Notes under the pieces: generated by a model | Seen by the model: only the letters and a program-made list of their open reading frames with translations | The model's database searches: none | What the model was told of the DNA's origin: nothing | Made by a program: the position numbers and the translations under genes | Virus record (IMG/VR): IMGVR_UViG_3300018063_000007 | Location: 1-50,846 of that record | DNA length: 50,846 nucleotides | Direction: 5' to 3' (one strand) | DNA from: a virus | Lineage: Duplodnaviria > Caudoviricetes | Shown: in pieces, positions 6,115 through 19,415 of the stretch | How the letters are laid out: each line of letters begins with the position of its first letter | Numbering within the stretch: position 1 is the stretch's first letter

Positions 6115-6385
6115 GGAATTCATGAAAGCGTTTGAAAGAAAGCTGAAGACGCACAATAAGCTAAAGTGGCAGGTAAGCGCATATATTAGGGGGTACGCAA
6201 CTGACCAACACAGACAATACTGCCCAATAGAGTTTGTGGCCGGTGTAGAGGGCGCCTACTTAGCTGGCGAGTCGATTTTGCGGCTGAGAAAATCTTCTGC
6301 TTACAGTATCATCGACGCTGCTGATGGTAAGCCAGGCCGTATTCGAAATCAACTCCTTAAGATCGTGGCCCCCTATGTCAGATAG
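6104..6385 (+). CDS. Basic hypothetical protein, family copy 2
   Basis: MSVREF...CPIEFV...DAAD...IVAPYVR. Confidence 0.75.
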   Translation: MSVREFMKAFERKLKTHNKLKWQVSAYIRGYATDQHRQYCPIEFVAGVEGAYLAGESILRLRKSSAYSIIDAADGKPGRIRNQLLKIVAPYVR

Positions 6386-7292
6386 CACGACCGTTGGCGC
6401 CCGCCCCCTCGCAACAGCCTACGACCCTTCGCGATTTACGCTAGGGCTCTACGCTCGTAATGGTGTAGGCAAGACCGCTGGTGCAGCGTCCTTCTGCGGC
6501 GGCGAGGCCGGTAAGGGCCTGGTGCTGAACATCGAGGCTGGCGTTGTGAACGACGCTGGGGGCGCAACTACGATCCAACACCTCGCCGGCATCTACGACC
6601 ACGTAACCCAAGACGACTTCTCTATGCTCGATGTGCGTGACTGGCAGGACGCCGAGAATCAGATCCGCTGGCTCCAGCGTGAGGCGCCCAATCTCGTCGA
6701 GGATGGCTTTACCACTCTCATCATGGACTCGGGCACCGATAGCGTGCAACTTCTCAAACGTGCCCTCACCCGCATCAACCCCGCGAACCTCAAAGGTAAC
6801 GTCGACAAGCATGGTCAAGAGGACTCCGCGAAGAAGAACCACAAACGCGCCCTTGTGCCTTGGATCGACGGCAAGCCCGGTCGTGGCATGGAATTTGACG
6901 ACTGGGAATACATTGCCGACTCGTTCTTCTTCGTGATCGCCACGCTTAAGGGGCTACCGTTCAGGCTTATTGTGACGTTCACCGAAGGTGAGGGGTACGA
7001 CGAGAACACCGGCATGAAGATGGGCTATGGCCCTAGCACCGAGGGCCAGAAGATCGGGAAGTCGATCATGGGGAAGTTCAACGCATTCTTTCATTGTCGG
7101 GTGGCGGAGACAGGTCAGCACATGTGGTTGACGCAAAACACCGTGGGCGCAACCGACTCGCTGGGCGATCCCTACTGGGCCAAGCATCGGTATGGATTGA
7201 AGCTCGATCGGCTGGAGCCCGCTAATGGTTTGGCGTTGATGAAGAAGATTGGGGTGCTCAAGTGCCCGCGCACAGAGGAGGAGGAGGCGTGA
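6375..7292 (+). CDS. Sak4-like / AAA_24 P-loop ATPase (single-strand annealing recombinase)
   Basis: Walker A YARNGVGKT, Walker B TLIMDSGT, late WAKHR; lies between exonuclease and SSB; start MSDSTT inferred at 6375. Confidence 0.8.
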   Translation: MSDSTTVGARPLATAYDPSRFTLGLYARNGVGKTAGAASFCGGEAGKGLVLNIEAGVVNDAGGATTIQHLAGIYDHVTQDDFSMLDVRDWQDAENQIRWLQREAPNLVEDGFTTLIMDSGTDSVQLLKRALTRINPANLKGNVDKHGQEDSAKKNHKRALVPWIDGKPGRGMEFDDWEYIADSFFFVIATLKGLPFRLIVTFTEGEGYDENTGMKMGYGPSTEGQKIGKSIMGKFNAFFHCRVAETGQHMWLTQNTVGATDSLGDPYWAKHRYGLKLDRLEPANGLALMKKIGVLKCPRTEEEEA

Positions 7293-7510
7293 CCATCTGG
7301 AATATTTATGGTTTTGATGCTGGCCCACACGGCGATCAGGCTTATATTGAGGCGGCGACTTTAGAAGAGGCGTTCAATGTCTTAGAGGAATGTATCAAGA
7401 ACGTGGACGATCGCTCAGATACAGTATGGAAGCCTACTCCACGCGAGGAGTGGAGAGGGGTATCAGAAACACGTCCTTTAGTATCTGTCCTCGGGGCTGG
7501 CTGCCGATGA
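7289..7510 (+). CDS. Hypothetical protein
   Basis: GGAGG SD, GTGA overlap. Confidence 0.6.
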   Translation: MTIWNIYGFDAGPHGDQAYIEAATLEEAFNVLEECIKNVDDRSDTVWKPTPREEWRGVSETRPLVSVLGAGCR

Positions 7511-7731
7511 CCGTCGACGACCGCGTTGCCCTTGCAACCATCACCGCTATGGTTCACACTATCCTGCAACGCCTGAACGTTTCGCGTGAGGAAGTCGGCG
7601 CCAATATGCGCGCCGCCTTCGATTTGTGGGGCGTCACCACAGCCGAGAATGTGGCACCCGACCACGAGCACGTGGCGGAAGAGCCCTCCGTTGGACAAGC
7701 GATAGAGGGTAAAGGAGAGGTGACAGACTGA
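7507..7731 (+). CDS. Hypothetical protein
   Basis: ATGA overlap; TGATG junction with the SSB gene. Confidence 0.55.
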   Translation: MTVDDRVALATITAMVHTILQRLNVSREEVGANMRAAFDLWGVTTAENVAPDHEHVAEEPSVGQAIEGKGEVTD

Positions 7732-8279
7732 TGAGCGACACACGTAGTATGTACGACGAAGGCACAGGCGACATTCAGTACCCACGTCCTCTTATCCATG
7801 AGGACTCGCCAGGCAGGGAACATCTAGAGTTGGTAAGCTTGACGATGACTGACGAGCCTCGTGGTAACGGTAACGAGAGTGCGAAGGGCGTTTTCTATGA
7901 TGCGCGTTTCCGCGTCGTGACCCCCGATGGTGGCAACAACGGATACGAGTTCACTCAGCGTGTTTACGCCGACGCGCGTATCGGTAAGAACGACGACGGG
8001 ACGCCGAAGAAGGCGTCGGTGTGGTTCTCCCGAGGGCGCCCGTTCCTTAACGGGTTGGTTGCTGCGACTAAGGGCCAAAAGGCCATCGGCTCGTTTTGGA
8101 CCGTCTGTAAAGGTGGTGGGCTCAAAGCGTACGTTGATCGGGCTCTCACCCTTACAGGTCAACGATTCAAGGCCAGCGTGGGTGTAGAGAAGGGAGACTT
8201 GATCGACAAGAATGACAAGGACGGTGGTAGGTATCGAGATAAGCAAATCGTCAAGGGCTTCTACGCGCTGACCGCGTAG
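7731..8279 (+). CDS. Putative single-stranded DNA-binding protein
   Basis: Beta-rich 182 aa after the Sak4-like gene; LTGQRFKASVGV...YRDKQIVKGF pattern. Confidence 0.6.
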   Translation: MSDTRSMYDEGTGDIQYPRPLIHEDSPGREHLELVSLTMTDEPRGNGNESAKGVFYDARFRVVTPDGGNNGYEFTQRVYADARIGKNDDGTPKKASVWFSRGRPFLNGLVAATKGQKAIGSFWTVCKGGGLKAYVDRALTLTGQRFKASVGVEKGDLIDKNDKDGGRYRDKQIVKGFYALTA

Positions 8280-8285
8280 ACTAAC

Positions 8286-8377
8286 CTAGCGTGTGCAGTT
8301 TCTTCGTCGCGTGGCCTAGCTGCACACGTTAGACTAAGGGGAGGGAGCGTCCCCGAGCCCACCAGTGGGTGGGCTCG
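8286..8377 (+). other. Three consecutive stem-loops between SSB and polymerase piece 1
   Basis: 8286-8300 pairs with 8318-8332 (15 bp, 2 G-U); GGGGA/TCCCC; CGAGCCCACC/GGTGGGCTCG. Confidence 0.65.
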
Positions 8378-8401
8378 AAGCAGTTCCCTCACGCACACAT
8401 A

Positions 8402-9121
8402 ATGGAACTCACAGCCCAAAACGTCATGGCGTGGCGGTTGCAGTTCACACGCTGTGATCTCTGCCCATTTCAACGTCGGCGCAAAGTCGGCTTCGCTGGT
8501 GACATCAACGCCGACATCATCTTGTGGGGCGAGGCGCCTGGCGCTGATGAAGCCTCCTACCGTGCCGGCCAGCAACTCTATGGCGAGCCGTTCGTCGGCC
8601 GTGCTGGTTGGGCGTTGAAGGAGCACATTTTGCTAGAAGCTGGCCCGAAGTTCGCGGTGCGTGAAGGCAAGGGCCACCGGCTGACGTGCTTTGTCGGTAA
8701 CACCATCATGTGCAACCCTCCAAAGAACAAGATCACTGGCACACTCGCCCGCAAGGCCCGTGCGGCATGCACGCCCTCCGGTCAGTTGCTATTAGCTGCA
8801 CTAATACGCAAAAAACGCCGTACACTGGTCCCTATGGGCGATGTGGCCCTCGAAGCCACAAAGGGCGTGACTGGCATTGGCAAGCACCGAGGGCGTGTCA
8901 ACGTCTTTAACGCACCGACGATCATGTTTGAGCATGAACAACTCAAGATCCTGCTCCGAGGTGTGAAGCCACCTACGGAGTGGAAAGGCCACAAGAACGC
9001 TGAGGGCAAGAAGGTGCTGGGCCACGAGGGCATCGTGCGATTGCTGTTGGCGTGGAATAGACGTATGATGAAGCCTAGGAAGCTACCGAAGGTGAAACGA
9101 ACGAAGCAGGAGACTCCATGA
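8402..9121 (+). CDS. DNA polymerase piece 1: N-terminal part of family 4 uracil-DNA glycosylase-like (SPO1-type) domain
   Basis: CDLC, GEAPG, PFVGRAG, MCNPPKN, AAC, PMGDVA, GKHRG; lacks the C-terminal HPA motif; start could be 8369. Confidence 0.85.
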   Translation: MELTAQNVMAWRLQFTRCDLCPFQRRRKVGFAGDINADIILWGEAPGADEASYRAGQQLYGEPFVGRAGWALKEHILLEAGPKFAVREGKGHRLTCFVGNTIMCNPPKNKITGTLARKARAACTPSGQLLLAALIRKKRRTLVPMGDVALEATKGVTGIGKHRGRVNVFNAPTIMFEHEQLKILLRGVKPPTEWKGHKNAEGKKVLGHEGIVRLLLAWNRRMMKPRKLPKVKRTKQETP

Positions 9122-9915
9122 CTATTGGTGAGTTCTTGAAGAAGTTTGAGCGGAAGGTGAAAGCAAAAAAGGTAAAGTGGCAGGCAACCGTAAAAATACG
9201 GGCACAATTAGCTGTGGGCGCCTCTACAGCGTTATGGCCTATGTGTCCAATTGAGTTTGTAGTAGGCCGTAGGAATTACCTTATTGGAGCAGAAAAACTT
9301 GGGTTGACAATGGCACAAACTCGTGCAATTGCTGACGCCGCCGATTTTGCTGACTCCGAGGCAAGCAAGCGCCTCCGTATACAGCTCATCAAGATCATAA
9401 AGCCTTACCTTGTTGCCCTACTTCTCGTAATGCTGACGAGCGCTGACTTGTGGGCCGTCCCGGCGAGCTGTAAGTGTTTTACTGAGAATGGCTTTTGGTC
9501 TTGTACCTGTCCTGATGGGTGGATATTGGAACCTACACCCGCGCTAACCTGTGTCCCTACCGTCCCAATCGTCCGCATCAAGCCTGGCTACGACCACCCG
9601 CTCCTCGTGGCGCCGGGCGAGACGGGGACGTTCCTGCTCGCTATCAAGAACCGGGACCAAGCGGGCTGCCCAGCGCACACGTTCGAGATTGGCGCGGCAG
9701 CGGCGTACGGCGCGGGTACAGGGGCGATTGAGGCCGTGCAGGACGCCACGCTCACGATCGAGCCACGCGAAACGAAGTACACGCGGGTGTACATCACGGT
9801 AGTGCCGGAGAGTGAGGTTGGGCCGGCGATCGTTGTGAGCCCGTATGTGCGGAGGACGGATGAGAGTCGACTGTATGGGCAGGCGGTTGGGCGGATTGTG
9901 GTGGTGGAGCCGTGA
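9118..9915 (+). CDS. Fusion of basic family copy 3 with a signal-peptide-bearing Cys/Ig-like domain
   Basis: Residues 1-95 resemble 5830/6104; then KPYLVALLLVMLTSADLWA; C-terminal domain resembles 26398..26826. Confidence 0.7.
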   Translation: MTIGEFLKKFERKVKAKKVKWQATVKIRAQLAVGASTALWPMCPIEFVVGRRNYLIGAEKLGLTMAQTRAIADAADFADSEASKRLRIQLIKIIKPYLVALLLVMLTSADLWAVPASCKCFTENGFWSCTCPDGWILEPTPALTCVPTVPIVRIKPGYDHPLLVAPGETGTFLLAIKNRDQAGCPAHTFEIGAAAAYGAGTGAIEAVQDATLTIEPRETKYTRVYITVVPESEVGPAIVVSPYVRRTDESRLYGQAVGRIVVVEP

Positions 9916-10184
9916 GCGTACTTAAAAGTAACAGGTCGAAACGTAAAACGCGCTGCTCTGAAGGCTGCCCACATAGTAGTAGGAGAGTTGACGCGTGGAT
10001 TAGGAGAGAGTTGACTAGGGTTCAAGTTACACGTCCTGGCTTTAGTTATCGTTACTGGCTTGCTCTTACATTACTTTTAGAAACACGCGAGGCAGCTAGA
10101 TCATTGCTTATGAAGGTGTGTCAGCCACCGTACACTACTTGTACTTACCATGGGGAGTTAGCTCGTGCCCTCGAAAATGAATAA
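9912..10184 (+). CDS. Hypothetical protein, similar to 10623..10886
   Basis: DAWIRRELT...YWLALTLL versus DEWITAELA...YHRALTLL. Confidence 0.55.
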   Translation: MSVLKSNRSKRKTRCSEGCPHSSRRVDAWIRRELTRVQVTRPGFSYRYWLALTLLLETREAARSLLMKVCQPPYTTCTYHGELARALENE

Positions 10185-10413
10185 GGGTAAGTTTCCGGCG
10201 TTTCCGTTACCACGCGTGTCAATACCAACTGGCTACGTGGAATGGAGTGGACAAGAGGGCATGTCCCTCCGCGCGTACATTGCGACACATGCGTTAGCGG
10301 GGCTACTCGCCGCCCCTGATGTTCATGGGCGCCCTGAGTGGTTTGTCCATAGTGCTGTAGTGTATGCCGACGCTCTCCTCGCCGAGCTAGCGAAGGAGCC
10401 GACCGATGGCTGA
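10177..10413 (+). CDS. Small phage protein with GMSLRxYxA...ADALL motif
   Basis: PAFP...GMSLRAYIATHALAGLLA...YADALLAEL, a common phage motif. Confidence 0.75.
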   Translation: MNKGKFPAFPLPRVSIPTGYVEWSGQEGMSLRAYIATHALAGLLAAPDVHGRPEWFVHSAVVYADALLAELAKEPTDG

Positions 10414-10630
10414 CCTCCGCCTGCTGACGGTCCTCCTCGTGCTGGCACTCGCCGGGTGTAATGGCGGCATGGTACTTCCTGAACGGCCTCAAGAGTGCCA
10501 CCTTCTTGTAAACGGGAAGCCTGTGGGCATTTCGTGTCAATGGTCCGGTGGGCGCTGCATGAGCGACACATACGTAACAGTACAGGTAGGAGACGAAATC
10601 CATATCGTATGTAGGAGAGCCGATGGCTGA
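10406..10630 (+). CDS. Putative lipoprotein
   Basis: Signal LLTVLLVLALAG-C with LAGC lipobox; AAGGAG SD; four further Cys. Confidence 0.7.
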   Translation: MADLRLLTVLLVLALAGCNGGMVLPERPQECHLLVNGKPVGISCQWSGGRCMSDTYVTVQVGDEIHIVCRRADG

Positions 10631-10886
10631 CCCCACGCTGGACGAATGGATCACGGCCGAGCTGGCGCAGTGCGAGGGGGCTAAATTGCCGCTGGGCTCT
10701 TACCATCGCGCCCTCACCCTGCTACAACAGCACCGCGCGGCGCTGCGGAAGCTATTCGCGCTTGTTGAAGACGGGACGCTCGTACGTGACATCTCTCGGG
10801 ACGACTTACGAGGTTGGGCGATGCGCCAAATACCACTTGTGAAAACGTTAGCTGAGGTCAGCGTCGTGCTTGCAGAGAAGCCATGA
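10623..10886 (+). CDS. Hypothetical protein
   Basis: AGGAG SD; coupled to neighbours. Confidence 0.65.
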   Translation: MADPTLDEWITAELAQCEGAKLPLGSYHRALTLLQQHRAALRKLFALVEDGTLVRDISRDDLRGWAMRQIPLVKTLAEVSVVLAEKP

Positions 10887-11248
10887 GCAAAGCCAACCCC
10901 AACGTGACGCACGCCATAGCCGATGTAATGAGCAGTTTGCTCAGTCGTGCCAACCGTGCAGAGGACCGCATCGCCCACCTCGAAGCCGACAAGGCACGGC
11001 TCACCACCGTAATACGAGAGCTACATCGCGTAGACTCACTTGGCTCAGACATCCCCAATGCTGGGCTGTACTGTCGTGCAATGGAGAAGGCTATTGATGC
11101 TCTCGCTGGCGTAGGCGACGTGCTCACGCCGGAGGAGCGCTCCCTCGTAACGAAGTGTGACCGCTGGCATGGGGGACCGCCGATATTCTACGCACTCCTT
11201 GCCATCCTCGACCGCATCGCCCCTGCACCAAAGGAGCCTGCGGCGTGA
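10883..11248 (+). CDS. Hypothetical coiled-coil protein
   Basis: ATGA overlap; RAEDRIAHLEADKARL. Confidence 0.6.
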   Translation: MSKANPNVTHAIADVMSSLLSRANRAEDRIAHLEADKARLTTVIRELHRVDSLGSDIPNAGLYCRAMEKAIDALAGVGDVLTPEERSLVTKCDRWHGGPPIFYALLAILDRIAPAPKEPAA

Positions 11249-11272
11249 CCGCTCGCTACTTTCAGATGACTG

Positions 11273-12115
11273 ATGACTGACCGTGCGTGGACGATGGGAG
11301 AGGTGTACGACCTGCTCGCGCTAGCGTGGGCGGTGCAGGAGCGTGAGGTTCGACGTTACAGTCAACTCCCGATAATGTTCCAACTATCGAACACCTGTGG
11401 AGACTGCGGTCGCGAGGGCACGTTGCACGAGTATTACTGCCTTACCGCGCCGGCCCGCCGCATCCTCGCCCCGATCCTGTTTCCTGAGAGGGAGGGAGTA
11501 TGAGTGACTGGGTAGAGAGAGGTCTAGCGGCCATGATTGGATTCTTAGCTTTCGTTGGGCTACTTACTGTGGCTGCTATCGGGGGGCAACTGGTACATCG
11601 TTGCTCTTGTGCGTGCGTACCATGACCATCACCCTCATCTTTACCCTTCCTGACGAGCAAGCCGAGTACGACGACGCGCGGAACGGCACGAAGTGGAAGT
11701 GTGTCGTCGAGGCGCTCCGCGAGCACCTACGTGCGAAGCTGAAGTACAGCGACATACCTACCAAGCAACGGGTGATTGTTGCCGAATTGCTCACCACACT
11801 CCACACCATCTGCCAGGACTGGGACGTGTCGTTGTGAGCGCAGTCGCGCCCGGCCACACCAATTCCCTCGTTGTCTACCGCTGCGCCGGCTGTGGGAAGG
11901 ACATTGAGCGCCGCCGGGTGAAGGTCAAGAAAACCCGCATCGGCTACGAGCGCACGATGCGCGGGTTCAAGACCATCTACACCTACACCCTCTATCACGG
12001 CTGCAAGGAGAAGCGCTGCGCCCCCGTCATCGCGTGGGATCGGCGCAAACAGAAACCGCGCTACGACAAGCGCTACAACAAAGAGGAGAACGCTCATGAG
12101 TATGCAAGTACCTAG
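11273..12115 (+). other. Run of small hypothetical genes (11273..11503, 11622..11837, 11834..12115)
   Basis: Short coupled + strand ORFs, some with CxxC. Confidence 0.55.
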
Positions 12116-12425
12116 CGGAATTGTTGCGACGGCAGTGATGATGGCTGTGCTGACCGTACCCGCGTCGGCGGAGTGGGCATACGCACCACCCTTCCCGCTC
12201 GTCTCCGGCACGGTGGTGTGCCCTGCTCGCAACGACTCCGCCATCCCCCTGACGGTATGGATCGAGTGCGTGGAGGCGACGAACGATGGGACGGTAGAGA
12301 GCCCAAAGGTGTGCGTTGACCTCCTCCCCAACACGGCCTGCGCGATCACGAGTACGGACTCGCGGTGTCGGCGGTGCAAGGCGTCGTGGGATGGGGGCGT
12401 GGGGCGCGTGAGCATCGCGGAGTAG
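12096..12425 (+). CDS. Putative secreted Cys-rich protein
   Basis: AGGAG SD; hydrophobic IVATAVMMAVLTVP then ASA cleavage site; 6 Cys. Confidence 0.6.
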   Translation: MSMQVPSGIVATAVMMAVLTVPASAEWAYAPPFPLVSGTVVCPARNDSAIPLTVWIECVEATNDGTVESPKVCVDLLPNTACAITSTDSRCRRCKASWDGGVGRVSIAE

Positions 12426-12434
12426 GAGGACAGC

Positions 12435-13175
12435 GTGAGCACCTGGACAATCGAAGTCGTCACCCGTGAGGCGTGGCTCGCCCGCATCGCCAAGCACGAG
12501 CGCCGCTGCCGGAAGTGTAAGCGGAGGGTGGTGTACAACGCCGGGACGACGACACATCCGCTGCCGCCGATCTGCTTGCGGTACATTGGGATGCTGTGGG
12601 GCCTACGGGCGTGCGAGTTAGCGAGGGTGGCGTGAGCCCAGTGTTAAGTGAGGCTCGGAGGTTGTTTATAATGAATCGGGCTCAACAGATGATATTAGCT
12701 GGTACAGCGCGAAAGTGCCCCTCAGACGGTTTGCTGTGTGATCGTTGTAATGATTTAGTCGAGGGTGCTTGCGGTATGATAAATGATGCCAATGCCGACT
12801 TCAACAGCATTCTTTGGCATGATAGCATGGCCGACAGCCACACCGACCTCACTATGTGGCTGTTGAAGCATTGGAGCGAGAGCATGCAAGTCCTCGCGGA
12901 ACGGCTGATGCGAGAGTACGACATTAGCAAGAAGGAGTCTTAGCCATGTGCGAATGCTGCCGCCTCAGCGGTGTCGACTACATCTACCGTGGCTTGCTCA
13001 TCTGTACGCTGTGTGTCAAACGGTGGTGCGTGAGGCAGACGGAGTTGAGGAAGTTGTGAGCGCCTGTTCATATTTTGCCGACATCGGCGCCGGTATCATG
13101 CTTTCGGGCATAGGGGCGCTCATCTGGCTCATCGTGGGCAGCTTGTTGTACCACGGGTGGATCAATCGTGAGTGA
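12435..13175 (+). other. Small hypothetical genes (12435..12635 zinc ribbon, 12632..12943, a membrane ORF ending at 13175)
   Basis: AGGAGG SD before 12435; GTGA overlaps. Confidence 0.55.
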
Positions 13176-13178
13176 GCC

Positions 13179-13277
13179 TAGCGGGTGTTTCCAGCATCGA
13201 GTTCGTGACGATGGGGCGTGGTTTCACGAGATGCGCGCTGTCAACGCAGTAGCGCTGGCGACGCCCAGCACCCGCTA
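13179..13277 (+). ncRNA. Putative structured cis-acting RNA (three-way junction with pseudoknot) before polymerase piece 2
   Basis: Hand-derived pairings: TAGCGGGTGT/GCACCCGCTA, GCATC/GATGC, TCGTGA/TCACGA, GCGCT/AGCGC; loop GGGCGT can pair with ACGCCC. Confidence 0.5.
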
Positions 13278-13284
13278 AATCTTT

Positions 13285-14106
13285 ATGAGTGAACTCCCCA
13301 GCTACATCGTCCCTTCGTACCACCCAGCCTACCTCCTTCGTAACCAAACTCTCACGAAGCCGACGATCGAGGATTTTCGCAAGGCCGCACGTATTCACGA
13401 GACAGGCCCGACACGCATTCCTATAGCTGAGCGAGAAAATGGTAGTATGGCTGACGCAGCGCTATTCCCGCTGCTTGATGATGTAGAAGGTTTCTTCAAA
13501 GGTTGGGGCCGTACTCATACCAGAATGTCCATCGACTTCGAAGCCACTATGACCGGCATCCCCTGGTGCGTGGGCTTCTGGCCGTGTGATAGTGAAGACC
13601 AAGTGCTTACCACTCAGGGTATCTGCATCCCCTTCCACAAACAGGGCGGCGAGAACTATTGGTCTCCACGCGACCACGAAGCGACCATGTGGCTGTTGAA
13701 GGAGTACCTCGAAGATCCTACACAGCCCAAGGTCGGGCAAAATTGGGTTGGTTATGACGGAGGTTACAACGATCATGGCTGGGAAGAAAGCGACCACTCG
13801 CTCGCATACCGAGCTTTCGGCATACGGGTTAGAGGCTTGGTACTCGACACGATGGTTGCACACCATGCGGTCTCTCCTGAGCTACCACATTCTCTTGCAT
13901 TCCAATCCTCTCTCTGTACTGACCTTGGTGCATACAAGCTGGAAGTCCACGCCACCTCATCGGTCGACGACGAAAAGGAAGACGACGCGCAGAAGGGCAT
14001 CCAAAACGTGAAGGACGTAGACGATAGGGTGTTACGGGGCTACTGCTTGAGGGACTGTTTTGCTGCTGGGCTGAGCGCGTGCGAGTTAGAGCGGGTGATG
14101 GCGTGA
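13285..14106 (+). CDS. DNA polymerase piece 2: UDG C-terminal motif plus 3'-5' exonuclease domain
   Basis: IVPSYHPAYLLRN (UDG motif B); ExoI SIDFEA; ExoII GQNWVGYD; DTMVAHH; ExoIII YCLRD. Confidence 0.88.
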   Translation: MSELPSYIVPSYHPAYLLRNQTLTKPTIEDFRKAARIHETGPTRIPIAERENGSMADAALFPLLDDVEGFFKGWGRTHTRMSIDFEATMTGIPWCVGFWPCDSEDQVLTTQGICIPFHKQGGENYWSPRDHEATMWLLKEYLEDPTQPKVGQNWVGYDGGYNDHGWEESDHSLAYRAFGIRVRGLVLDTMVAHHAVSPELPHSLAFQSSLCTDLGAYKLEVHATSSVDDEKEDDAQKGIQNVKDVDDRVLRGYCLRDCFAAGLSACELERVMA

Positions 14107-15081
14107 AGCGTTTCGTAAACCTCGGTGAGCAGATTTGCCCTGGGGCTCCGTGCTTCGCGTGGTTTGATACTGTTGTATCCCAATTCGAGGAACACAATGG
14201 AGCACAAATATGGGATAGCTGGGGTGAGTTCAAAGCTGATTATGTGGGTGGTGACTTAAAGCGGTACTTAGGGCTATTCATGCGGTCAGATTTTGGTGGC
14301 ATTGTTGGCGCTCATGATACCACTATACTAACGGACGAGTAGTGGCTACCTTGACCGACCACGAAGGCCTTTGGTATTGTAAGCACTGTGGCGCGTTGAA
14401 CGTAGCCGTGTGCGATTGTGATTTCTGTTTAGTATGCTGCCAAGTAATATGTATAGCACATGATGGGCACGAGTCGTGACCACCTACACCGTCTGCTCTA
14501 CCTGTGGCACACCACACCTGTTCGACCCTTCGTGGGACGTAGAACAATGCCCAGACTGCTACTACGCCGACAACCACGAGCCGCTAGACGACACAAGTGA
14601 AAATGACTGGCTTGACTTTTTAGAAGACAGTTATCTTGATGATAGCCCCTGGGATTTAGACGAACATGATGAGGACTGAAGCTGCTGAGCTTGAAGACCT
14701 CCGCACCCAGAAATCCATCTGGCAAGGGTGCTACACCCGCCAGGTCGTGCGCCAGCTCAACACGTTTCACCTCGCCACCTCGGCGGTCGTGGCCCTTATA
14801 GCTATGCGCGACCAGCTCCCCACGCTCACCGAAGCAACCACCCACGAGCTATACCACCGGCTCGACGTGGCGATCGAGCAGTTGTCGTCGGCGTTGAAGG
14901 TGGCGGAGGGTGAGTTGTGACGGTAGAGAATGTAAACTGGCACTTTACGTATACAGAAGACAAACGTGCTGTTGTAACAGAGGTTGGTGGGCGAGTTAAG
15001 TGGTACGTATATCGATGTTATGGTCTTCAAGGCTACATTTGGGTAGCTGCTAGCATACTTGAGCGTGGCGCATGGGCCTAG
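14103..15081 (+). other. Island of small genes between polymerase pieces 2 and 3 (14103..14342, 14476..14679, 14666..14920, 14917..15081)
   Basis: Coupled short ORFs, partly AT-richer; 14917..15081 hand-translated. Confidence 0.6.
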
Positions 15082-16352
15082 GCGTCAGGCACATCCACGA
15101 CATCGGCCTCCCACTCCTCCCAATCGTCCAGCAAGTGGGCATGCAGGGCCTTCCCTTCGACGCCCAGCGCCGCGAATCTCTGTTGATGGACTTCATCGAA
15201 CCTGAGCTAGCCAACCTCGCGGGCTCGCTTGCCGATTGTGGCATCACCGACGCCAAATCCACCAAGAAGCTGGGCGCTGCACTGGCCGCGCTAGGGGTGC
15301 CGCTGGAGAAACACACGAAGGGCGGTGAGCAATTCGCTGTCGACCTCGAAGTCCTCCGGCGTAAGCACCATGAGTTTAACGAGGCCGACGATCGCGTTCG
15401 CTTTCCCTTTCTCCCCACCCTCATACGCTTCAAGCAGTTTGAGAAGGCACGTGCGAACCTGCACAGCATGGTCTTGTGCAAGGACGGTCGCCTGCGCTGT
15501 CGGTTGAACTCGCTGGGGACGGAGACGGGTCGTTATTCGAGCGCGGGTCTTGGATGGTGCCCGCGTTGCCACCAACCGGATCATGGCACGAACCTCCAAA
15601 ACATTGCTAAGAACAACGCTGAGATAGGACTGAACCTCCGAGACGTTATTGTAGCACGCCCAGGGTACACACTACTAGAGTTCGACTACTCGATGCTTGA
15701 GCTAAGGATCTTGGCATACGTAGCGAACGTCAAACTGCTCATCGAGCGCCTCGAACGGGGCGACGACATCCACAGCGAACATGAACGCGACCTGTTCGGC
15801 ACGGTGGGCGAAAGTCGCACCCTCGCCAAGAACTTCGGTTTTGCCGCCATCTATGGTGGTAAGGCCAAAGCTATTCAGATGGCCCTCGCCAAGAAGGGCA
15901 TTTTCCTCGAACTCGCTGAGATTGAGCGTCTTCGCTCGATCATGCTCTACGAACGCTACCCCGAGATTATCTCGTGGCAGATCGACGCTGAACGTCAGAT
16001 CAACGCGCTGAAGCTGGCGAAGCTTCCTGTGGCGGTGCGTACGGTGTTCGGCTCCGCGCGAGTCTTACTCGGCTACGAGCCCCTCAAGGAGTGGCTCAGC
16101 ACTCGCATCCAGGGCACGGCTGGGTGGATTATGTCGTTTAACCTCCTACGGATGCGCAAGCAAACGCGGGGCTACCTATGTACGCAGATCCACGACGCCT
16201 TCTTAGCCGAGGTTCCCGCAAACATGATGATGCAGTATACAGCGGAGATGGTGGAGTTGATGGAACGTAAAGTCTGGATGCATGACCGCTTCGTGCGCTT
16301 TCCCGTCGATGTCAGTTGTGGTAGACGGTGGAGCGAGATGACGAAGTGCTGA
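15072..16352 (+). CDS. DNA polymerase piece 3: family A polymerase domain
   Basis: TETGRYSS, NLQNI, motif A EFDYSMLELRILA, motif B RTLAKNFGFAAIYG, IQGTA, motif C QIHDA. Confidence 0.93.
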   Translation: MGLGVRHIHDIGLPLLPIVQQVGMQGLPFDAQRRESLLMDFIEPELANLAGSLADCGITDAKSTKKLGAALAALGVPLEKHTKGGEQFAVDLEVLRRKHHEFNEADDRVRFPFLPTLIRFKQFEKARANLHSMVLCKDGRLRCRLNSLGTETGRYSSAGLGWCPRCHQPDHGTNLQNIAKNNAEIGLNLRDVIVARPGYTLLEFDYSMLELRILAYVANVKLLIERLERGDDIHSEHERDLFGTVGESRTLAKNFGFAAIYGGKAKAIQMALAKKGIFLELAEIERLRSIMLYERYPEIISWQIDAERQINALKLAKLPVAVRTVFGSARVLLGYEPLKEWLSTRIQGTAGWIMSFNLLRMRKQTRGYLCTQIHDAFLAEVPANMMMQYTAEMVELMERKVWMHDRFVRFPVDVSCGRRWSEMTKC

Positions 16353-17320
16353 AGGCCCAATCGCTTGGCTGGCTCATCGACCACCCGCCACCGGAGGTAA
16401 AATCACTATGGGGCAACGCATTGCTTCCACGCCGGGGTCTTACGCTTTTACATTCAGCCTCGAAACAGGGGAAATCTATGTTAGCATTGAACCTTGCTTT
16501 AGCTGGCGCGGCTGGATTGCCTCACTACTTAGGTTTCCCTATAGAATCTACGTTTACGACCTTCGTACTTCAAGGCGAAATCCACTTACGGGGAGTGTGG
16601 GAACGTGCCTCCCAAATGATTCGGACTATGGGCGCGACCCTACCGAGCGAGGCCATTAACCGGGTGATCGTGAACGAGGAGCGTACCCTGCGATTGGCGC
16701 AGTCGGAGATGTGGGATGAGTTCCGAGAGGTAGTGCGGTGGCTTCGGCCCGATTTGGTAATTCTCGACCCCTTCGCCCACGTGCTCACCGAGGATGAGAA
16801 CTCGAACGTCATCGTGGGCAAGATCCTCGAAAAGATCGCGGAGTTGCGTGACGACCCTGGATGCGCTATCCTTCTCGTACACCATGACGGCAAGCCCAGC
16901 GAAAGCACGTCGTCGCGCCAACCTCGCCAGCGCTCGCGTGGAGCAGATCGCCTTAACGCAGATCCAGACAGCATTCTCTCGTTGGTGCCGCTCCGCCGTC
17001 CCAAGGGCTCAGGCCCGCTCAGCCGTCTTGAGCCTGTCTCTCGATACGGGCGAAGTGTGGATTCTTTCGACGTGGCCCTCAACGAAGACACGCTCTGGTT
17101 TGAGCGTGCGACGCAAGAGGACACGGAAGACTTTGACATCGCCATCGCCTCGTTGGTTCCCCCTGGAGGCTGCTCCGAGCAAGAATTACTCAGAGCCTTT
17201 AACACTGTCAAAGGATATAGTGACGGGCGGTTACGTCAAGCTCGATCAGCTTTCGCAGAAGCCGTTGGGCAGGGTATTTTGCAGGTAGAGCATGGAGTCG
17301 TGAGAAAAAAGGAGGAGTGA
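16328..17320 (+). CDS. RepA-like (AAA_25) replicative helicase
   Basis: Walker A HSASKQGKS, Walker B LVILDPF, DENSN, ILLVHHDGK, RGA. Confidence 0.85.
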   Translation: MERDDEVLKAQSLGWLIDHPPPEVKSLWGNALLPRRGLTLLHSASKQGKSMLALNLALAGAAGLPHYLGFPIESTFTTFVLQGEIHLRGVWERASQMIRTMGATLPSEAINRVIVNEERTLRLAQSEMWDEFREVVRWLRPDLVILDPFAHVLTEDENSNVIVGKILEKIAELRDDPGCAILLVHHDGKPSESTSSRQPRQRSRGADRLNADPDSILSLVPLRRPKGSGPLSRLEPVSRYGRSVDSFDVALNEDTLWFERATQEDTEDFDIAIASLVPPGGCSEQELLRAFNTVKGYSDGRLRQARSAFAEAVGQGILQVEHGVVRKKEE

Positions 17321-17556
17321 TGCCATACATCCCTCAAGACGCTCGTAAACAGCTTGACAGCGGTGACATCCAAGGGGGAGGTTCCCTCTGTTACCTCATC
17401 ACCATGTTGTGTAAAGGCTACCTCCTTCAACGTGGCGAGAGCTACGACCATTATGGTGAGGTACGCCACGCCCTTGCTACGACGTGGGATGAGTACGTGC
17501 TACCGCGCTTTCGCACCTACGAGGCCAAGAAGCGCGAAACCAATGGTGAAGTGTGA
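17317..17556 (+). CDS. Small conserved phage protein (MPYI...GxLxYLIT...YExKKxxxNGxV family)
   Basis: Motif pattern; GGAGG SD. Confidence 0.7.
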   Translation: MMPYIPQDARKQLDSGDIQGGGSLCYLITMLCKGYLLQRGESYDHYGEVRHALATTWDEYVLPRFRTYEAKKRETNGEV

Positions 17557-17930
17557 GGATATACGTTGCGGGCACCTTCGGCGACCGCTCCAAGCTCAAG
17601 AAGATTGTCAAGCGCATCCGCGCCACGGGCCACGAAGTCTCTAGCTCATGGATGTACGAGGGCAAGCGCCCAGAGGGGCAAACGCATGAGCATTGGTTCC
17701 AGCAGCTCGCCCTCAAAGATTTGGCCGAAGTACGTAAGGCGAACCTCTTGATCCTCGACACACGTACCCGCTCGCCTCGTGGAGGTAAGAACGTAGAGTT
17801 TGGGGCTGCGCTCGTTGAGTATAAGTTCGTGTGGGTCGTCGGTCCAGTGCGCAACGTGTTCGAGACGCTCGCTGATGAGCACTTCCCAACGTGGGCGGCT
17901 GCGATAGCGCGATTGAAGGAGGCTGTGTGA
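17553..17930 (+). CDS. Nucleoside 2-deoxyribosyltransferase-like N-glycosidase
   Basis: IYVAG, GHEVSSSW, DLAEVRKAN, GKNVEFGAA, VVGP. Confidence 0.75.
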   Translation: MRIYVAGTFGDRSKLKKIVKRIRATGHEVSSSWMYEGKRPEGQTHEHWFQQLALKDLAEVRKANLLILDTRTRSPRGGKNVEFGAALVEYKFVWVVGPVRNVFETLADEHFPTWAAAIARLKEAV

Positions 17931-18328
17931 CCACGAACCTACTAACATGTACGAAGTGTCATGGTAAATACCCTCGTGAGGAGCTTGACACACATCCATG
18001 CGAACCTCGGTCACGCAAAGAGATGCTTGACGCGCAGCGGATGCTTGACGCACAGCGACCAGGTGTCGCGTACGATCTAAGCGAGCAAGATGAAGTGCTC
18101 GCCATCTTCATGGTGATGCTGAAGGAAGTTACCGCTGATGGGGGCCGAAAGCGGGCAAAGGGTGCAAAGCCGTCATGGAAGGTCGATCCTTCACATGAAG
18201 CAGCGATCTTCTCTCACCTAAACAGGTGGAAGCATGGTGAGAAGGTCGATCCCGATAGTGGTACTCACCCACTCGTGCATCTTGCGTGGCGGGCGCTGGC
18301 GATTGCGTATCAGGAGGGCGCCCGTTGA
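17927..18328 (+). CDS. dATP/dGTP diphosphohydrolase-like protein (DUF5664 type)
   Basis: AIFSHLNRWKHGEKVDPDSGTHPLVHLAWRAL; AGGAGG SD before GTG 17927. Confidence 0.7.
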   Translation: MTTNLLTCTKCHGKYPREELDTHPCEPRSRKEMLDAQRMLDAQRPGVAYDLSEQDEVLAIFMVMLKEVTADGGRKRAKGAKPSWKVDPSHEAAIFSHLNRWKHGEKVDPDSGTHPLVHLAWRALAIAYQEGAR

Positions 18329-18693
18329 AAATACTCCTGCTGGACATCGCGTGGCTTGCTGGGCTGTTAGAGGGCGAAGGTTCTTTCCATATTAGTACAA
18401 AGCGAGGTAAGCCAAGTTCATTGCTCGTTGTTGTGCAAATGACTGACGGCGATATAATTGAGCGGGTGGCGCAGCTATTCAATAGGCCGATGCATGGGCC
18501 CTACAAACGCCGCAATCCTTCGTACAAGCCTTTTTACTCTACGAGTATCTCGGCGAGTAGCGCTGCTAGCTGGATGATGACGCTTTATCCTTTTCTTGGT
18601 CAAAGACGCCGAGAGAAGATTAAGGAGCTTTTACATTTCTGGCGAGCACAAGCTGCTGGACGAGGAGGACGGCCACGCGCATCTTATTGCTAG
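18325..18693 (+). mobile_element. Free-standing single-motif LAGLIDADG homing endonuclease gene
   Basis: AWLAGLLEGEGSF, VQMTD, LYPFLGQRRREKI; AGGAGG SD and TTG start at 18325; AT-richer. Confidence 0.82.
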
Positions 18694-19415
18694 ATATAGA
18701 GACGAGCCCAAATACTGTATTCACATGGGGTTTGTTCAAACAAAATATCTCTACCGACAAGATCATCGACTCTAGTTCTGTCCTCTGCTGGGCCGCTAAG
18801 TGGTACGGTGAGCGCCAAGTGATGTTCGATTCCGTGCATGCATCGAAACCTAAGATGATGCTCCGCCGTATGCACAAACTCCTTGACGAAGCCGACGCCG
18901 TGATAACCTACTTCGGTGACTCGTTCGACCTTCCTACGTTGTCGAAGGAGTTTGTGCTTCATGGATTCACACCCCCGGCACCATTCAAGAAGGTGGACCT
19001 CTGCCGTGTTGTCCAACGTACGTTCAAGTTCCCGTCGAACAAGCTCGACTATGTTGGACAAGCCCTTGGCCTAGGTATGAAGACGCGCCACACTGGCTTT
19101 GAGATGTGGGTGCAGTGCATGGCGGGCGACGCGAAGGCGTGGAAGCTGATGGAGAAGTATAATCGTAGAGATGTGACATTGCTTGAGCAACTCTACGACC
19201 GCCTCAAACCTTGGATCAAGTCTCACCCCAACCATCGGCTCTACGACGACGACGCCCTCTGCCCTAACTGTGGGAGCGTACGCCACCAGCGAAGGGGTTA
19301 CGCTATGAGCAAGGTGCTCAAGTATTCTCGTTTTCAGTGCTTAGAGTGTGGCACGTGGTTCCGCTCGACGCATTGCGTGAAGGATGCGACAACGCGGTAC
19401 ACACAGGTTCAATGA
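18675..19415 (+). CDS. DnaQ/RNase H-like 3'-5' exonuclease with C-terminal zinc ribbon
   Basis: ILLLDIETSP, YFGDSFD, NKLDY, YNRRDV, CPNCGS...CLECG; start is ACG 18675 or TTG 18687. Confidence 0.85.
   Translation, partial: TRILLLDIETSPNTVFTWGLFKQNISTDKIIDSSSVLCWAAKWYGERQVMFDSVHASKPKMMLRRMHKLLDEADAVITYFGDSFDLPTLSKEFVLHGFTPPAPFKKVDLCRVVQRTFKFPSNKLDYVGQALGLGMKTRHTGFEMWVQCMAGDAKAWKLMEKYNRRDVTLLEQLYDRLKPWIKSHPNHRLYDDDALCPNCGSVRHQRRGYAMSKVLKYSRFQCLECGTWFRSTHCVKDATTRYTQVQ

Follow-up and report, generated by a model that had tools for sequence, protein, structure and literature searches.

A phage UDG-PolA-type DNA polymerase encoded by three dispersed genes, with its uracil-DNA glycosylase fold divided between two of them

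The Caudoviricetes virus record IMGVR_UViG_3300018063_000007 of IMG/VR (hereafter the window, the whole 50,846-base stretch that was analysed) encodes a family A DNA polymerase in three pieces. The modules of a UDG-PolA enzyme, namely a uracil-DNA glycosylase (UDG) of family 4, a 3'-5' proofreading exonuclease and a polymerase domain, were found in collinear order, but in three separate open reading frames (ORFs), here called pieces 1, 2 and 3 (Table 1). One of the two cuts runs through the UDG fold itself, whose last strand and motif B open piece 2. Sequence comparisons and structure prediction suggest that the three products probably form a non-covalent, three-protein polymerase that arose by two gene fissions and in which the UDG fold is completed in trans.

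Piece 1 matched the Pfam UDG profile PF03167 (E=6e-8, 33.3 bits; cut-off 24.3), but the match covered no more than profile positions 4-105 of 141. Its residues 15-151 aligned to residues 15-130 of TM0511, the 192-residue family-4 UDG of T. maritima (PDB, E=2e-6), and family-4 UDGs were the top structures in a Foldseek search with its model (E=2.6e-8). Four cysteine ligands of a 4Fe-4S cluster are a feature of family-4 UDGs, and C18, C21, C104 and C123 of piece 1, the putative ligands of such a cluster, were invariant in 12 sequences. Motif A was present as G43-E44-A45-P46-G47, while direct reading of the sequence found no H-P-[AS] motif B in piece 1. When folded alone, the protein formed three sheet strands only, and residues 165-176 were modelled as coil. 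The ORF could start at a GTG at 8369, yet relatives align from the ATG at 8402, ahead of which no clear Shine-Dalgarno sequence was found. A GC-rich inverted repeat with 8-bp arms (8351-8376) is located after the upstream gene, ahead of piece 1. Furthermore, an extra C-terminal tail of ~70 amino acids, which ordinary UDGs do not have, follows the RG motif (residues 171-239; 8912-9121). This tail is conserved in the clade as a K-x-x-L-R-G-x-K-P stretch followed by W, was modelled as helices plus a small hairpin, and may serve for the docking of another subunit.

The motif B histidine is catalytic in family-4 UDGs. In the window, motif B does not share a chain with the rest of the UDG, and H13-P14-A15 sits on piece 2, 4.2 kb downstream. 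Piece 2 opens with a strand followed by YHPAYLLR and ends 16 residues past YCLRD. Its residues 8-35 aligned to residues 156-185 of TM0511, a weak match (E=0.43), but at the expected place. Within the exonuclease part, ExoI residues D84 and E86, ExoII residues N153 and D158, and ExoIII residues Y253 and D257 were invariant in 15 sequences. Piece 2 matched positions 607-815 of phrog_17 'DNA polymerase' (E=3.9e-12), and the top structure retrieved with its model by Foldseek was the Klenow fragment, at the exonuclease domain (E=9.5e-5); the score against the Pfam exonuclease family PF01612 was 19.5 bits, under the cut-off of 23.6. In the model of piece 2 folded alone, the exonuclease domain was confident and residues 1-12 had a per-residue confidence (pLDDT) below 50.

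Piece 3 matched the Pfam DNA_pol_A family PF00476 (E=2e-34, 119.5 bits; cut-off 34.3) and positions 898-1234 of phrog_17. Residues D205, E210, K253, G263, H374 and D375 were invariant in 31 sequences. Relatives at 37-55% identity numbered 51: stand-alone proteins of 400-468 amino acids (48), one exonuclease-polymerase fusion (P0011) and two intein-bearing proteins (P0025 and P0026). The inteins of these stand-alone polymerase pieces are located in motif A of P0025 and in motif B of P0026, and a large insert was seen in P0109; mobile elements target the polymerase family of piece 3. Three further residues, C136, C163 and H171, were invariant across the 31 polymerase pieces and C166 was nearly so; this Cys/His cluster at residues 136-171 (15477-15584) may be a metal-binding insert.

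The three ORFs have their own starts and stops and lie 4163 and 965 nucleotides (nt) apart, and their homology to fused UDG-exonuclease-PolA enzymes is collinear over all three modules. In the single-chain homologs P0096, P0131 and P0139, which were retrieved with piece 2, the RG motif and the strand with HP(A/S) are contiguous and the exonuclease comes next. When pieces 2 and 3 were compared with three fused relatives (P0088, P0011 and an ORF of locus L006), the 11-15 linker residues were accounted for within 1-3 residues. Judging from these alignments, neither cut lost sequence. The exonuclease-polymerase cut falls in the interdomain linker and leaves the two domains in separate genes, as in the split PolA of S-SBP1-like phages. 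The layout given in the initial annotation was thereby borne out: three + strand ORFs, four cysteines and GEAPG without motif B in piece 1, motif B at the opening of piece 2 ahead of ExoI-III, and collinear pieces from which nothing is lost on joining.

Both spacers are filled with small ORFs, which mostly overlap by 4-8 nt and mostly show the coding-like pattern GC1>GC2<GC3. Pfam returned nothing significant and no homing endonuclease for the 18 spacer ORFs of the window, and no homologs of the island ORFs were present in six related loci. The best direct repeat, 24 of 30 nt between 12600-12629 and 14068-14097, was matched by one of 30 Markov shuffles and is at most weakly beyond chance. Through this repeat, the spacer ORF 12435..12635 ends in nearly the C-terminal peptide of piece 2, and the overlapping ORFs that follow start alike too. 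The repeat may be a recombination footprint or chance.

Table 1 Coordinates of the polymerase pieces, the spacers and the flanking genes in the window
Feature	Coordinates	Strand	Basis and remarks
Piece 1, N-terminal three quarters of family-4 UDG	8402..9121	+	CxxC plus two Cys, GEAPG, Phe of PF..G, Asn of N..MC.PP; without strand beta4 and motif B
Piece 2, residues 1-42: UDG strand beta4, motif B (H13-P14-A15), C-terminal UDG helix	13285..13410	+	TM0511 alignment, single-chain homologs, co-fold
Piece 2, remainder: 3'-5' proofreading exonuclease with ExoI, II and III	13411..14106	+	phrog_17, invariant residues, Foldseek
Piece 3, family A polymerase thumb/palm/fingers with motifs A, B and C	15072..16352	+	Pfam DNA_pol_A, invariant residues
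Gene island 1, ~14 small overlapping ORFs	9118..13278	+	ORF list, GC pattern; separates piece 1 from piece 2
Gene island 2, five small ORFs	14079..15081	+	Separates piece 2 from piece 3; last ORF runs 10 nt into piece 3
Sak4-like AAA_24 protein	6324..7292	+	Pfam and phrog; upstream of piece 1, order kept in L002
Conserved 182-amino-acid ORF	7731..8279	+	Upstream of piece 1, order kept in L002
AAA_25 (DnaB/primase-helicase-like) protein	16328..17320	+	Pfam AAA_25, E=7e-24; after the polymerase gene in L002-L005

To follow the cuts in relatives of the window, loci (L numbers) were collected from viral and metagenome contigs and then searched with clade-specific hidden Markov models; L105 and L109 were dropped as repeats of L005 and L003, and L100/L101 counted as one entry in the tally of exonuclease-polymerase junctions. 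With piece 3 as a single query sequence, a scan of viral contigs gave no relatives; an alignment query did find loci. In all nine distinct loci showing both, piece 1 was an ORF of its own upstream of piece 2, with spacers of ~358 to 4,163 nt, which indicates that the UDG cut is ancestral to the window clade. No fused form came up at E<=0.001 when piece 1 was used in a 'longer' search, which is weak evidence. The order of the Sak4-like gene, the 182-amino-acid ORF, the three pieces and the AAA_25 helicase-like gene was kept across related loci.

The exonuclease-polymerase junction was found in several states among 10 distinct loci: fused in one (L006), overlapping in another frame in two (L005 and L103), less than 100 nt apart in two (L003 and L102), and 0.5-2.1 kb apart in five (the window, L002, L004, L007 and L100). 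This range from fused to far apart fits fission after which passenger genes inserted at the new junctions. Furthermore, the spacers differed in length and content in every relative, and no homing endonuclease was detected in the 10 largest spacer ORFs of the relatives, the part scanned of the ~60 listed. The overlaps between exonuclease and polymerase ORFs in different frames (L005 9561-9601; L103 1290-1293) resemble the frameshift-type fission of S-SBP1-like phages, and may alternatively reflect programmed frameshifting. Passenger ORFs in the exonuclease-polymerase slot included RNA-ligase-like and metallophosphatase-like ones (L004 6990-7559; L100 7181-7747).

The two UDG halves were found to vary together. 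Motif A (E-x-P-G) in gene 1 and motif B (H-P-A) in gene 2 were concordant in nine of nine loci, both being intact in the window, L002, L098, L005 and L107 and both decayed in L004, L006, L007 and L100. The four cysteines of piece 1 persisted in all 12 sequences, including those from loci with decayed motifs. Pieces 1 and 2 were then co-folded, without piece 3, from alignments of 12 and 15 rows, respectively. As a result, the interface score ipSAE was 0.90 in three runs, compared with 0.00 for the best of three controls; 58 of 80 solved complexes attained that mark, versus 2 of 110 mismatched pairs. The runs agreed in at least 88% of contacts, and the partner pLDDT was at least 82. The co-fold is predicted to insert the N-terminal strand of piece 2 at the open edge of the piece 1 sheet, completing the UDG sheet in trans. 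The tightest contacts joined piece 2 residues 7-11 with beta3 (141-144) of piece 1 on one side and with its residues 165-168 on the other. The predicted interface included residues 3-18, 26-42 (the last UDG helix) and 205-216 (exonuclease domain) of piece 2, and motif A residues 43-44 of piece 1. A complementary interface between the two pieces, which the initial annotation had suggested looking for by co-folding, was thus formed in the model.

To place the UDG cut in the wider family, a full phmmer scan was run with piece 2; of the 649 proteins that it returned at E<=0.001, the best 150 were examined. Together with earlier matches, these gave 138 homologs in which the N-terminus could be aligned: 102 carried at least 100 residues of the UDG N-terminal part upstream, 30 started no more than 12 residues from beta4, and 6 were intermediate. 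H-P-[AS] was kept in 26 of 30 representative homologs starting at the beta4 strand. A FastTree phylogeny of the exonuclease region was built from 135 rows, leaving out sequences whose N-terminus was unaligned, that ended before query residue 200 or that were shorter than 150 residues. On this tree, at least 8 changes were needed to explain the state of starting at the strand, and well-supported branches forced 5 of these; when labels were shuffled, the mean was 25.5 changes, and none of 500 shuffles fell as low as the observed value. Solid all-split clades were that of the window (9 rows) and one of P0101-like exonuclease-polymerase proteins of 700-1000 amino acids (13 rows), while some of the singleton rows starting at the strand are possibly miscalled or truncated genes. 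In L017, which represents this second clade, the gene for the UDG N-terminal part stops soon after RG, and the next gene, 200 nt further on, opens at the strand. From these sequences, the cut in the UDG hairpin is recurrent in several clades. The wider family also has cuts at other sites: many UDG-exonuclease proteins of 320-390 amino acids among the best 150 matched piece 2 only to about residue 220.

The ancestor would have been a single-chain UDG-exonuclease-polymerase (UDG-PolA), divided by two gene fissions. The first cut falls within the family-4 UDG fold, at the hairpin turn that joins the strand following the conserved RG to strand beta4, and the second in the linker past the ExoIII helix. 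The three products would be translated separately and assemble non-covalently. Upon assembly, the first ~40 residues of the exonuclease protein, with beta4, HPA and the last UDG helix, would enter the three-stranded UDG sheet and complete both the fold and the active site, the inserted strand tethering the glycosylase to the proofreading subunit, while the exonuclease and polymerase proteins would associate like the domains of one-chain enzymes. The new intergenic junctions would have become slots for unrelated small genes, now 4.2 kb and 1.0 kb in the window.

Several points weigh against this model. The concordance of motifs in nine of nine loci represents few independent events, perhaps one or two losses, because L002/L098, L007/L100 and L005/L107 are close pairs. 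Since four relatives keep both genes with both motifs decayed, the conserved role of the UDG domain may be structural rather than catalytic. The high co-fold score may show likeness and not binding, because the family-4 UDG fold has been solved many times as one chain. The contact between pieces 2 and 3 is suggested by analogy and by the fused relatives. No recognisable Shine-Dalgarno sequence precedes piece 2 or piece 3, no RNA run was listed as containing the stretch, and conservation is what speaks for their expression. The anatomy of the pieces, their collinearity and their conservation are shown; that the products assemble, that the glycosylase is active and in which order the events took place we infer from comparisons of sequences and from models.

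Alternatively, the three proteins could act separately, as a polymerase on its own, a proofreading exonuclease acting in trans and an inactive or repurposed glycosylase remnant, the HPA strand being vestigial. Such separate action would agree with the retention of both genes in the four related loci that lost motifs A and B, with the conserved ~70-residue tail that could give piece 1 a role of its own, and with the Pfam exonuclease score under the cut-off. However, a vestige does not explain the H-P-[AS] motif in 26 of 30 orphan-strand proteins. Motifs A and B also decay together, each half alone is incomplete or disordered at the strand, and the co-fold (0.90 against 0.00 for the best control) puts the strand at the open edge of the sheet. 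Separate action was therefore considered unlikely, though it is the strongest competitor of a non-covalent complex.

It is much less probable still that the pieces are rejoined, whether by excision of the islands from the DNA, by splicing or trans-splicing of RNA, by ribosomal bypass or through split inteins. The collinear order without loss at either cut, the mobile insertions in polymerase pieces of relatives (P0025, P0026 and P0109) and the overlapping frames in L005 and L103 would be in line with it. In contrast, no Rfam intron was found in 7500-17500, where the sole match was a chance snoRNA-like one (E=0.44), and intein blocks were absent from the new termini. Homology to the neighbouring module begins within 8 residues of each new terminus, so split-intein halves have no room, and no Cys/Ser/Thr +1 context occurs at the cuts. 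The spacers hold ~14 and five ORFs that differ in every relative, no direct repeats flank the islands at the cut sites, and no joined form was present in the contigs of two Logan runs, although contigs drop rare variants. The initial annotation had offered both a heterotrimer with a composite UDG site and rejoining at the DNA, RNA or ribosome level. Its heterotrimer gained support from the cut in nine of nine loci, the joint decay of the motifs and the co-fold, binding being predicted; rejoining did not, and the remark of the annotation that no intein ends or intron core were recognised and that the spacers are gene islands was confirmed. Least credible of all is an artefact, that is, a misassembled contig or a dying gene in pseudogene fragments. 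The genome was indeed assembled from a metagenome, and the two Logan runs, both from freshwater sediment metagenomes, are not fully independent evidence, because they are possibly the source of the window DNA. Yet an identical 50,753-nt contig was recovered from both run assemblies (depths 33 and 67), one copy being circularly permuted, with 0 differences from the window over an 8.1-kb stretch; misassembly, raised at the outset as a possible refutation, was not borne out by this identity. The same cuts, intact ORFs and invariant catalytic residues also occur in relatives at 37-55% identity, and the profiles for the UDG N-terminal part, the strand-exonuclease and the polymerase each had one match in the genome, with no second polymerase, exonuclease or UDG of such type.

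The window has direct terminal repeats and is rated complete. The + strand carries replication genes up to ~20.3 kb, the - strand large structural genes. Megablast against phages gave zero near-identity DNA matches. In tblastn with piece 3, the nearest annotated phage polymerases were less than 27% identical, and SPO1 was not among the 30 matches listed; the 'SPO1-type' label of the initial annotation is a tentative one. Downstream of the polymerase region, a 135-amino-acid ORF with weak LAGLIDADG matches (E=3e-4, under the Pfam cut-off) abuts or slightly overlaps a 242-amino-acid exonuclease gene of RNase_H_2 type (18286-19415), so that a homing-endonuclease-like gene exists in the genome, but away from the polymerase cuts. 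At 17553-18328, an ORF with the N-terminal domain of dATP/dGTP diphosphohydrolase (PF18909, E=7e-9), which has a 65%-identical homolog in L004, comes after an ORF with a weak nucleoside 2-deoxyribosyltransferase-like match. By their sequence matches, these two may have nucleotide-pool or base-modification roles relevant to an active UDG.

Essential phage enzymes encoded in collinear pieces that reassemble non-covalently are known from T4 topoisomerase (genes 39/60) and from nrdA of Aeromonas phage Aeh1, where the split is tied to a homing endonuclease; in contrast, no homing endonuclease was found in the spacers of the window. Two deposited genomes come closer. MW202554 has two adjacent coding sequences annotated 'DNA polymerase', cut past the ExoIII helix as in the window, but its UDG is whole and fused to the exonuclease part. 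In the cultured Caulobacter phage Kuura (OQ067476, genes 029 and 026; L015 6542-9946), two small genes lie between the halves, and the UDG is again whole and fused to the exonuclease part. The Kuura cut falls between ExoII and ExoIII, so that ExoIII opens the polymerase gene, whereas the window is cut after the ExoIII helix. The UDG-exonuclease gene of Kuura is annotated 'hypothetical protein'.

According to the available passages of Czernecki et al. 2023 (PMC10201439), the UDG of UDG-PolA enzymes is packed between exonuclease and polymerase, and looks active in SPO1-like but decayed in N4-like members. The accessible part of Missoury et al. 2026 (PMC13697223) reports solved structures of the YerA41 and phiLo UDG-PolA enzymes, in which the UDG excises deoxyuridine on the template ahead of the fork. 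The single-chain enzymes described in these portions of the two papers (SPO1-like, SP15-like YerA41/phiLo and N4-like cluster 17) have the same modules in the same order as the window. Its intact motifs A and B are like those of the SPO1-like and SP15-like groups, and its decayed relatives parallel the N4-like group. In contrast to them, the window has three polypeptides, one of its cuts passes through the UDG fold, and unrelated genes separate the pieces by 4.2 kb and 1.0 kb.

Fission between exonuclease and polymerase has been described in S-SBP1-like, T7-like cyanophages (cluster 5), the first reported for family A, with a frameshift origin, adjacent overlapping genes and predicted reassembly (PMC10201439). 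Both there and in the window, exonuclease and polymerase are in separate genes, the linker is cut and reassembly is predicted. In contrast to that case, the window belongs to another, UDG-bearing lineage with relatives of other architecture, its exonuclease and polymerase genes are not adjacent but separated by ~1 kb that holds five ORFs, and a second cut lies inside the UDG. In many metagenomic phages, herpesviruses and poxviruses, the UDG is encoded in trans of the polymerase (PMC13697223). These UDGs likewise dock on the replicative polymerase, but they are complete enzymes, whereas the free protein of the window is without the last strand and the histidine. Literature searches found no paper describing a cut inside the UDG domain. 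In the portions available, the word 'split' occurs 0 times in PMC13697223, and its 9 uses in PMC10201439 concern the exonuclease-polymerase division in the passages shown. The initial annotation treated the arrangement as nearly unprecedented, but family A exonuclease-polymerase fission is in print (PMC10201439), the two-gene form of MW202554 is deposited, and the UDG cut recurs in at least two further clades. The exonuclease-polymerase cut is a further case of the published fission; a UDG divided within its fold and pieces dispersed so widely are apparently not in print.

It is conceivable, though doubtful, that the cut inside the UDG is a selected design rather than merely tolerated. With the last strand and the catalytic histidine carried by the proofreading subunit, uracil excision would be confined to the assembled replisome, which would serve in dose or timing control or in escape from inhibitors of free UDG. 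If true, such a design could explain both the independent cutting of the same hairpin in several phage lineages and the retained HPA. For annotation, piece 1 would be called a plain 'uracil-DNA glycosylase', and pieces 2 and 3 partial or separate polymerases. The new gene junctions also indicate that such sites quickly become insertion slots for accessory genes. How the UDG module is held on UDG-PolA can be tested directly with the divided enzyme; the coupling of replication and uracil repair in UDG-PolA enzymes received a structural description only in 2026 (PMC13697223). If the polymerase works in pieces, it would represent natural complementation between fragments of an essential enzyme, as one cut crosses a catalytic fold and leaves the two active-site motifs on different proteins, and the case generalises beyond the window genome, since the cut recurs in several clades.

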